Below are positions 1,323-3,398 of a stretch of DNA of 3,569 nucleotides, in pieces. The stretch lies in the sequence record MT830620.1; one strand, 5' to 3'. Within the stretch, counting starts at the first letter, position 1; the number at the start of each line of letters is the position of its first letter. Both the position numbers and the translations under genes were made by a program. The notes beneath the pieces are model-generated. The model was not told the origin of the DNA and ran no database searches. It saw nothing but the letters and a program-made list of their open reading frames with translations. This stretch comes from Escherichia phage MS2.

Positions 1323-1342
1323 GGAGTTCGAAGCATGGCTTC
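1323..1342 (+). promoter_or_regulatory. Coat gene RBS and initiator hairpin (SD GGAG 1323-1326; stem 1330-1334 GAAGC / 1338-1342 GCUUC with AUG 1335-1337 in the loop)
   Basis: Direct inspection of the inverted repeat flanking the coat AUG. A coat initiator hairpin presenting the AUG is described for MS2; the fold is not computed here. Confidence 0.6.
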
Positions 1343-1727
1343 TAACTTTACTCAGTTCGTTCTCGTCGACAATGGCGGAACTAGCGACGTGACTGTCGCC
1401 CCAAGCAACTTCGCTAACGGGGTCGCTGAATGGATCAGCTCTAACTCGCGCTCTCAGGCTTACAAAGTAACCTGTAGCGTTCGTCAGAGCTCTGCGCAAA
1501 ACCGCAAGTACACCATCAAAGTCGAAGTGCCGAAAGTGGCTACTCAGACCGTTGGTGGTGTGCAGCTTCCTGTAGCCGCATGGCGTTCGTATCTGAATAT
1601 GGAATTAACTATTCCCATCTTCGCAACGAACGACGATTGCGCGCTTATTGTTAAGGCGATGCAAGGTCTCCTAAAAGATGGAAACCCAATCCCCTCAGCA
1701 ATCGCAGCAAACTCCGGAATCTACTAA
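1335..1727 (+). CDS. cp: Coat (capsid) protein, 130 aa including the initiator Met; ends in tandem stops UAA UAG (1725-1730)
   Basis: MASNFTQFVLVDNGGT...KDGNPIPSAIAANSGIY matches MS2/R17-type coat protein. The true start is the AUG at 1335 with the SD at 1323-1326, not the upstream in-frame ATG at 1218 used by the ORF track. RNA-binding residues known from MS2 (V29, K43, T45, S47, R49, T59, K61, E63, Y85, N87) are all present. Confidence 0.95.
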   Translation: MASNFTQFVLVDNGGTSDVTVAPSNFANGVAEWISSNSRSQAYKVTCSVRQSSAQNRKYTIKVEVPKVATQTVGGVQLPVAAWRSYLNMELTIPIFATNDDCALIVKAMQGLLKDGNPIPSAIAANSGIY

Positions 1728-1905
1728 TAGATTCCGGCCATTCCAACATGAGGATTACCCATGTCGAAGACAACAAAGAAGTTCAACTCTTTATGTATTG
1801 ATCTTCCTCGCGATCTTTCTCTCGAAATTTACCAATCAATTGCTTCTGTCGCTACTGGATGCGGTGATCCGCACAGTGGAGACTTTACAGCAATTGCTTA
1901 CCTAA
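1678..1905 (+). CDS. lys: Lysis protein L (75 aa, single-gene lysis), +1 frame relative to coat, overlapping the coat 3' end and the replicase 5' end
   Basis: ORF 1678..1905 translates to METQSPQQSQQTPESTNRFRPFQHEDYPCRRQQRSSTLYVLIFLAIFLSKFTNQLLLSLLDAVIRTVETLQQLLT. This has the MS2 L architecture: a basic/polar N-terminal region, a hydrophobic transmembrane segment and the conserved Leu-Ser (LLLSLL) motif. Position is the same as in MS2. Confidence 0.92.
   Translation: METQSPQQSQQTPESTNRFRPFQHEDYPCRRQQRSSTLYVLIFLAIFLSKFTNQLLLSLLDAVIRTVETLQQLLT
1746..1764 (+). promoter_or_regulatory. TR translational operator hairpin (coat-protein binding site, replicase translational repressor and packaging signal): ACAUGAGGAUUACCCAUGU
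   Basis: Exact match to the canonical MS2 operator: stem 1746-1750 / 1760-1764, bulged A at 1751, G-C G-C upper stem, loop AUUA 1754-1757 (wild-type U at -5). The replicase AUG (1761-1763) lies in the 3' arm and the SD GAGG (1750-1753) in the 5' arm. Confidence 0.95.
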
Positions 1906-3398
1906 GGGATGAGTTGCTTACTAAGCATCCGTCGCTAGGTAATGGTAATGACGAGGCGACCCGCCGGGCTTTAGCTATCGCTAAGCTCCGGGAGGCGAAT
2001 GAGCGATGTGGCCAGATTAATAGGGAAGGTTTCCTACATGACAAATCCTTGTCATGGGATCCGGATGTTTTACAAACCAGCATCCGTAGCCTTATCGGCA
2101 ACCTTCTTTCTGGTTATCGCTCGTCGTTGTTTGGGCAATGCACGTTCTCCAACGGTGCCTCAATGGGGCACAAGTTGCAGGATGCAGCGCCTTACAAGAA
2201 GTTCGCTGAACAAGCAACCGTTACCCCCCGCGCTCTGAGAGCGGCTCTACTGGTCCGAGACCAGTGTGCGCCGTGGATCAGACACGCGGTCCGCTACAAC
2301 GAGTCATATGAATTTAGGCTCGTCGTAGGGAACGGAGTGTTCACAGTTCCGAAGAATAACAAAATAGATCGGGCTGCCTGCAAGGAGCCCGATATGAATA
2401 TGTACCTCCAGAAGGGAGTCGGCGCCTTTATAAGACGTCGCCTCAAATCTGTGGGTATAGACCTGAATGATCAGACGATCAATCAGCGTCTAGCTCAACA
2501 AGGCAGCATAGACGGCTCATTAGCGACGATAGACCTATCGTCAGCTTCTGATTCCATCTCTGACCGCCTGGTATGGAGTTTCCTCCCACCTGAGTTATAT
2601 TCATATCTCGATCGTATCCGCTCCCACTACGGAATCGTAGATGGAGAGACGGTACGATGGGAACTATTTTCCACAATGGGAAATGGGTTTACTTTCGAAC
2701 TAGAGTCCATGATATTTTGGGCTATAGTGAAAGCAACTCAAATCCATTTTGGTAACGCCGGAACCATAGGCATCTACGGGGACGATATTATATGTCCCAG
2801 TGAGATTGCACCCCGTGTGCTAGAGGCACTTGCCTACTACGGTTTTAAACCGAATCTTCGTAAAACGTTCGTGTCAGGGCTCTTTCGCGAGAGCTGTGGC
2901 GCGCACTTTTACCGTGGTGTCGATGTCAAACCGTTCTACATCAAGAAACCAGTTGACAATCTCTTCTCCCTTATGCTGATCATGAATCGGCTTAGGGGGT
3001 GGGGCGTTGTCGGAGGTATGTCAGATCCGCGCCTTTATAAGGTTTGGGTACGACTGTCCTCCCTGGTTCCATCGATGTTCTTCGGTGGGACGGACCTTGC
3101 TGCCGACTACTATGTAGTAAGCCCTCCAAATGCTGTCTCAGTTTATACAAAGACTGCGTATGGTAGGTTACTCGCGGATGCCCGTACCTCGGGTTTCCGT
3201 CTTGCTCGTATCGCCAAAGAGCGAAAGCACTTTAGCGAGAAGCATGACAGTGGTCGCTACATAGCATGGTTCCATACTGGAGGTGAAATCACCGATAGTA
3301 TGAAGTCCGCTGGCGTGCGCGTAATGCGCACTTCGGAGTGGCTGACGCCGGTTCCCACATTCCCTCAGGAGTGTGGGCCAGCGAGCTCTCCTCGGTAG
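1761..3398 (+). CDS. rep: RNA-dependent RNA polymerase (replicase beta subunit), 545 aa
   Basis: ORF 1761..3398. YGDD catalytic motif at nt 2775-2786 (GTIGIYGDDIICP). The sequence MSKTTKKFNSLCIDLPRDLSLEIYQ... matches the MS2 replicase as I recall it; same coordinates as in MS2. The stop codon UAG is at 3396-3398. Confidence 0.96.
   Translation: MSKTTKKFNSLCIDLPRDLSLEIYQSIASVATGCGDPHSGDFTAIAYLRDELLTKHPSLGNGNDEATRRALAIAKLREANERCGQINREGFLHDKSLSWDPDVLQTSIRSLIGNLLSGYRSSLFGQCTFSNGASMGHKLQDAAPYKKFAEQATVTPRALRAALLVRDQCAPWIRHAVRYNESYEFRLVVGNGVFTVPKNNKIDRAACKEPDMNMYLQKGVGAFIRRRLKSVGIDLNDQTINQRLAQQGSIDGSLATIDLSSASDSISDRLVWSFLPPELYSYLDRIRSHYGIVDGETVRWELFSTMGNGFTFELESMIFWAIVKATQIHFGNAGTIGIYGDDIICPSEIAPRVLEALAYYGFKPNLRKTFVSGLFRESCGAHFYRGVDVKPFYIKKPVDNLFSLMLIMNRLRGWGVVGGMSDPRLYKVWVRLSSLVPSMFFGGTDLAADYYVVSPPNAVSVYTKTAYGRLLADARTSGFRLARIAKERKHFSEKHDSGRYIAWFHTGGEITDSMKSAGVRVMRTSEWLTPVPTFPQECGPASSPR

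Follow-up and report, generated by a model that had tools for sequence, protein, structure and literature searches.

Four coat protein differences between the MS2-like coliphage genome MT830620.1 and MS2: three residues shared with named strains and one private AB-loop substitution

Introduction

In the MS2 capsid, the coat protein exposes its helices on the outside, and its beta sheet is turned towards the RNA. The AB loop of MS2 protrudes from the particle and has been described as an immunodominant epitope (PMC10729756). The whole coat protein was scanned by Hartman et al. (2018), who scored every single substitution for virus-like particle (VLP) assembly in E. coli in an MS2 background, a read-out of assembly and not of infectivity, antigenicity or environmental stability (PMC5895741, Supplementary Data 1). 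On this scale negative values stand for poor assembly, and silent mutations have a mean of +0.63 (sd 0.3) against −2.66 for nonsense mutations. Positions 76, 99 and 102 rank among the most mutable in the protein, with mutability indices of −0.09, −0.04 and −0.04; the index of position 16 is −0.23 (PMC5895741).

Genomes of MS2-like strains have been described as well. DL52 and DL54 are JS recombinants, in which the 3' part of the replicase gene is divergent and the genome measures 3525 nt, and ACCACCCA is a conserved 3' signature of leviviruses (PMC3499819). Here we analyse the stretch of DNA deposited as MT830620.1 (the window, 3,569 nucleotides), with emphasis on its coat gene. A preliminary description, made from the sequence, had proposed that this coat differs from MS2 at four surface-loop or inter-subunit residues that could affect antigenicity or capsid stability without touching RNA binding. 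Residue numbers below follow the mature protein.

Genome organization and relatives

MT830620.1 (3569 nt) is the complete genome of an MS2-like RNA coliphage of genogroup I, Emesvirus zinderi. Both its size of about 3.57 kb and its gene content, with maturation, coat and replicase genes and an overlapping lysis gene placed as in MS2, are those of genogroup I. The coat gene (1335-1727, plus strand; 130 codons plus stop) has the same coordinates as the coat CDS in DL16, J20, MS2, R17 and ST4. The maturation (130-1311), lysis (1678-1905) and replicase (1761-3398) frames, all on the plus strand and taken from the ORF list, likewise lie where they are annotated in MS2, R17, ST4, DL16 and J20. The genogroup I assignment is borne out by a nucleotide identity of 92.0-95.3% to the genomes of MS2, R17, ST4, M12, DL1, DL16 and J20, compared with 77.5% to fr. 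It is also borne out by the coat-binding translational operator hairpin at the replicase start (1746-1764, plus strand; ACATGAGGATTACCCATGT), which is identical to that of MS2 and of all 14 aligned group I MS2-like genomes. The full-length megablast matches in the phage collection were DL16 (95.3%), DL1 (95.2%), J20 (94.6%), FrSaffron, FrHenna and FrBlood (each about 94.5%) and the MS2 reference (92.0%).

Trees were built by neighbour-joining with fr as the root, one from maturation plus coat and one from replicase. MT830620.1 groups with DL1, DL16, J20, the Fr strains and GER_K20, apart from MS2, R17, ST4 and M12, with bootstrap values of 81 (maturation plus coat) and 100 (replicase); placement inside this environmental grouping has bootstraps of 20-79. 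The coat residues Q76/D99/A102 are present in the same codons as in DL1, DL16, J20, DL52, DL54, FrHenna and FrBlood. The coat gene is best placed in an "environmental" sublineage comprising DL1, DL16, J20, FrHenna, FrBlood, FrSaffron and GER_K20. We also considered whether the phage is a JS recombinant and rejected this, as its replicase is 80.3-80.6% identical to that of DL52 and DL54 compared with 94-96% to that of DL16, DL1 and J20, and its genome has 3569 rather than 3525 nt.

MT830620.1 differs at 165 positions or more from each of its relatives, yet only 21 of its nucleotides are private. This combination suggests that most of the variation in the genome is shared polymorphism, which would have come from homoplasy at silent positions, from recombination between environmental strains, or from both. 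Measured against the 14 group I genomes, the whole genome holds three private amino-acid changes, including G16S in the coat. The other two are S362F in the maturation protein (TTC, 1213-1215) and a Gly at replicase residue 40 (GGA, 1878-1880), where the other strains have R or D; the latter codon lies inside the overlap with the lysis gene.

Some further features of the window concern its annotation and its ends. The maturation gene starts with ATG (130-132), compared with GTG in the MS2 reference. GTG occurs only in MS2 and ST4; ATG is the start codon in R17, M12 and every environmental strain, so that here again the laboratory reference is the outlier. A 169-codon ORF (1218-1727) extends the coat gene upstream in frame and overlaps the end of the maturation gene, and a metagenome gene call of 169 aa (P0016) has the same upstream extension on a DL16-type coat. 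We rejected this ORF as a longer coat and regard it as a gene-calling artefact. At the 3' end, MT830620.1 (3562-3569) reads ACCACCCG and departs in its last base from the levivirus signature, which is present in 11/11 relatives that cover the 3' end, fr among them. The difference is probably a sequencing-end or cloning artefact and has no bearing on the coat finding.

Comparison of the coat protein with MS2 and related strains

The coat ORF encodes a levivirus coat of 130 aa, matching Pfam PF01819 (Levi_coat) with E 1.6e-66 and 222.8 bits (cut-off 25) over residues 3-129 and profile positions 1-132. The sequence is already known. An exact-sequence look-up of contigs that encode it returned none; in a cluster look-up, all 130 residues match GenBank QNI21282.1, "coat protein [Escherichia phage MS2]". 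When aligned with the MS2 chains 5tc1, 2vtu and 1u1y (96.9% aa identity) and with NC_001417, the protein shows exactly four differences, G16S, E76Q, S99D and E102A. These are the four that the preliminary description had listed, and both its reading of the codons (AGC, CAG, GAC and GCG) and the MS2 residues it gave for comparison (Gly16, Glu76, Ser99, Glu102) proved correct by this alignment. Relative to the MS2 reference (NC_001417; 2MS2-type chains 5tc1 and 1u1y), 126/130 coat residues are thus identical, with 30/393 nucleotide differences in the coat gene. Every other coat residue is as in MS2, the RNA-binding ones included, and the operator hairpin is unchanged, in agreement with the proposal that RNA binding is left untouched.

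To locate the four residues we used an AlphaFold model of the MT830620.1 coat (mean pLDDT 76) for secondary structure. The loop that joins strands A and B contains residue 16, and residue 76 comes just past the turn of the F-G hairpin, so that the proposed loop placement holds for these two. Helix alpha-A spans mature residues 98-111 in the model, and residues 99 and 102 both sit in its first turn; these two are hence helical rather than part of "surface loops".

The distribution of the four residues was tabulated over 17 strains, made up of 14 group I MS2-like genomes together with fr, GA and a BZ13 strain. Three of the four turn out to be standard residues of named strains, an outcome that the preliminary description had itself named as one that would refute it. 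Codon 76 (1563-1565, plus strand) is CAG for Gln, compared with GAG for Glu in MS2; codon 99 (1632-1634, plus strand) is GAC for Asp, compared with TCC for Ser; and codon 102 (1641-1643, plus strand) is GCG for Ala, compared with GAG for Glu. Q76, D99 and A102 occur together, in identical codons, in seven named strains (DL1, DL16, J20, DL52, DL54, FrHenna and FrBlood). E76 is found in fr, GA, BZ13, MS2, R17, M12, FrSaffron and GER_K20, a pattern that makes Q76 a derived state, marking some of the environmental strains. The polarity at the two helix positions is reversed. D99 is carried by fr, GA, BZ13 and most environmental MS2-like strains, and S99 only by MS2, R17, ST4 and M12; A102 is carried by fr, M12 and all environmental strains, and E102 only by MS2, R17 and ST4. 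M12 has S99 as in MS2, yet keeps A102. Since fr, GA and BZ13 carry D99, and fr and M12 carry A102, the derived states are S99 and E102, in the MS2/R17/ST4 laboratory lineage, and D99 and A102 are older states that MT830620.1 has simply retained. Phage fr itself (X15031; PDB 1frs) shares D99 and A102 with MT830620.1 (local sequence FATNDDCALIVKA) and agrees with MS2 at positions 16 and 76 (G16, E76); its coat differs from that of MT830620.1 by 17 aa in all, and the coat gene is 81.7% identical in nucleotides.

Serine at position 16 is the sole private coat substitution. Codon 16 (1383-1385, plus strand; AB loop) is AGC, compared with GGC or GGT for Gly in every relative, and a single G-to-A transition separates GGC from AGC. 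Gly16 is present in 17/17 of the aligned group I and II strains. DL1 (EF107159), DL16 (EF108464), J20 (EF204939), DL52 and DL54 (JQ966307/8) and FrHenna and FrBlood (PP430140/39) are identical to MT830620.1 at 129/130 coat residues and differ at residue 16 only. Their coat genes have 16-22 further nucleotide differences, all silent, and they share its gene coordinates and genome organisation.

Searches beyond these strains gave a similar picture. A 30-aa AB-loop peptide with S16 had no 100% match among the 173 phage records that cover the loop, whereas the G16 version matched 156/173 of them at 100%. More distant relatives in the wider protein collection (64-68% identity) have N, Q or D at position 16, and in the same collection N12-G13-G14, ahead of the loop tip, is invariant. 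One MS2-like coat from the Logan assemblies (P0018; 96% identical) has GGPNNV in place of GGTGDV at the tip, through the substitutions T15P, G16N and D17N, and combines these with D99, A102 and S114; it is a more striking natural AB-loop variant than the S16 of MT830620.1. The N, Q and D residues and the GGPNNV variant indicate that the AB-loop tip is naturally variable. Scans of IMG/VR and the JGI metagenomes with degenerate DNA patterns returned two MS2-type contigs only, both with the laboratory MS2 coat; these collections are poor in MS2-like genomes, and the scans are uninformative on S16. A literature search found no mention of "G16S" in connection with the MS2 coat protein.

Assembly tolerance and constraint on the coat gene

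In the MS2 mutational scan, all four substitutions are competent for assembly. G16S scores +0.14, E76Q +0.55, S99D +1.10 and E102A +0.74, with S99D the top score at position 99 and a silent Gly at position 16 scoring +0.34 (PMC5895741). The suggestion that the differences might alter antigenicity or capsid stability finds no support here. The G16S score is the lowest of the four and lies under that of the silent Gly at the same position, and Ser16 may thus have a small cost or a specific effect.

Counts of codon differences from MS2 give no sign that the coat has been singled out for change. The ratio of replacement to silent differences is 4:24 for coat, 15:75 for maturation and 21:111 for replicase. 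There is thus no excess of replacement change in the coat, and the four differences are no more than background divergence gives.

Constraints at the RNA level were considered as well. The overlap with the lysis gene was rejected as a constraint, as the lysis gene starts only at 1678, downstream of all four codons. Nucleotide 1383, the base changed in codon 16, is predicted to be unpaired. It lies immediately 5' of a conserved hairpin (1384-1399) and has no covarying partner; a possible extra pair with nucleotide 1400 is not conserved among strains, and shuffled sequences fold as stably as the local stretch 1335-1470 (z = −0.22). With the base predicted unpaired, no RNA-structure constraint is evident at this site, and on all of these grounds we rejected an RNA-structure reason for G1383A.

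Discussion

The four coat differences are very probably near-neutral strain polymorphisms, ordinary variation of the MS2 group in a coat that works as an MS2 coat. Its dimers would build a T=3 shell and would bind the operator hairpin, repressing replicase translation, two functions suggested by the 97% identity to MS2. The differences would be of three ages, with D99 and A102 older, Q76 the marker of a subset, and S16, a single G-to-A transition at the exposed AB-loop tip, private to this record. The capsid tolerates substitution at all four positions, and a change of function need not be invoked.

Ser16 is the difference for which other origins have to be weighed. That it is a sequencing, RT-PCR or cloning error, or a quasispecies minority fixed by plaque purification, seems unlikely to us; were it an artefact, the true coat would be identical to that of DL1, DL16 and J20. 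The change is a lone G-to-A transition in one record only, the same record has only three private amino-acid changes in its whole genome, and its last base, at odds with 11/11 relatives, suggests imperfect end or consensus quality. A genuine variant is nevertheless equally plausible, given that G16S is tolerated in assembly and that polar residues are natural at position 16 in relatives. RNA phages have a high mutation rate, and at such a rate three private replacements in 3.5 kb are unremarkable.

There is only a slight chance that the substitutions are adaptive at the capsid surface. S16 would then alter the AB-loop epitope, and E76Q, S99D and E102A would alter charge, a shift that would in turn alter pore or inter-dimer contacts, isoelectric point, adsorption or disinfectant resistance. 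The immunodominance ascribed to the AB loop of MS2 (PMC10729756) is consistent with such a role, as is the net charge of +1 per subunit relative to MS2 (E76Q +1, S99D −1, E102A +1); moreover, genogroup I strains differ in removal and chlorine resistance (PMC6963950), and DL52 has the Q76/D99/A102 coat. However, the coat gene has no excess of replacement over silent change, positions 76, 99 and 102 belong to the most mutable of the capsid, and D99 and A102 are ancestral, so that two of the three charge changes are not new. Receptor binding in MS2-type phages is a function of the maturation protein and not of the coat, and no host-range pressure on the coat surface would be expected. DL52 and DL54, furthermore, have identical coats and yet behaved differently in the wastewater study, and thus the coat cannot explain those differences (PMC6963950). 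Least probable, in our judgement, is that Ser16 is a genuine circulating variant of the AB-loop tip. Together with GGPNNV it would then point to diversification of this epitope among natural phages of the MS2 group, which may for instance be driven by antibodies or by some other pressure on the particle surface in the guts of animals. Such a reading, if true, would bear on MS2 particles that serve as vaccine scaffolds and on the role of MS2 as a surrogate in water tests.

If the four differences are near-neutral strain polymorphisms, as we favour, their overall significance is small. Q76, D99 and A102 are already known from named strains, and G16S is a conservative, assembly-tolerated change in the peptide-display loop, without a demonstrated consequence. 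What the comparison brings out is that the MS2 laboratory reference is atypical of natural genogroup I phages at coat positions 99 and 102, and for many strains at 76 as well. The natural coat carries one more unit of net charge (+1) per subunit than that of MS2, a point of possible relevance wherever MS2 serves as a surrogate virus or particle scaffold.
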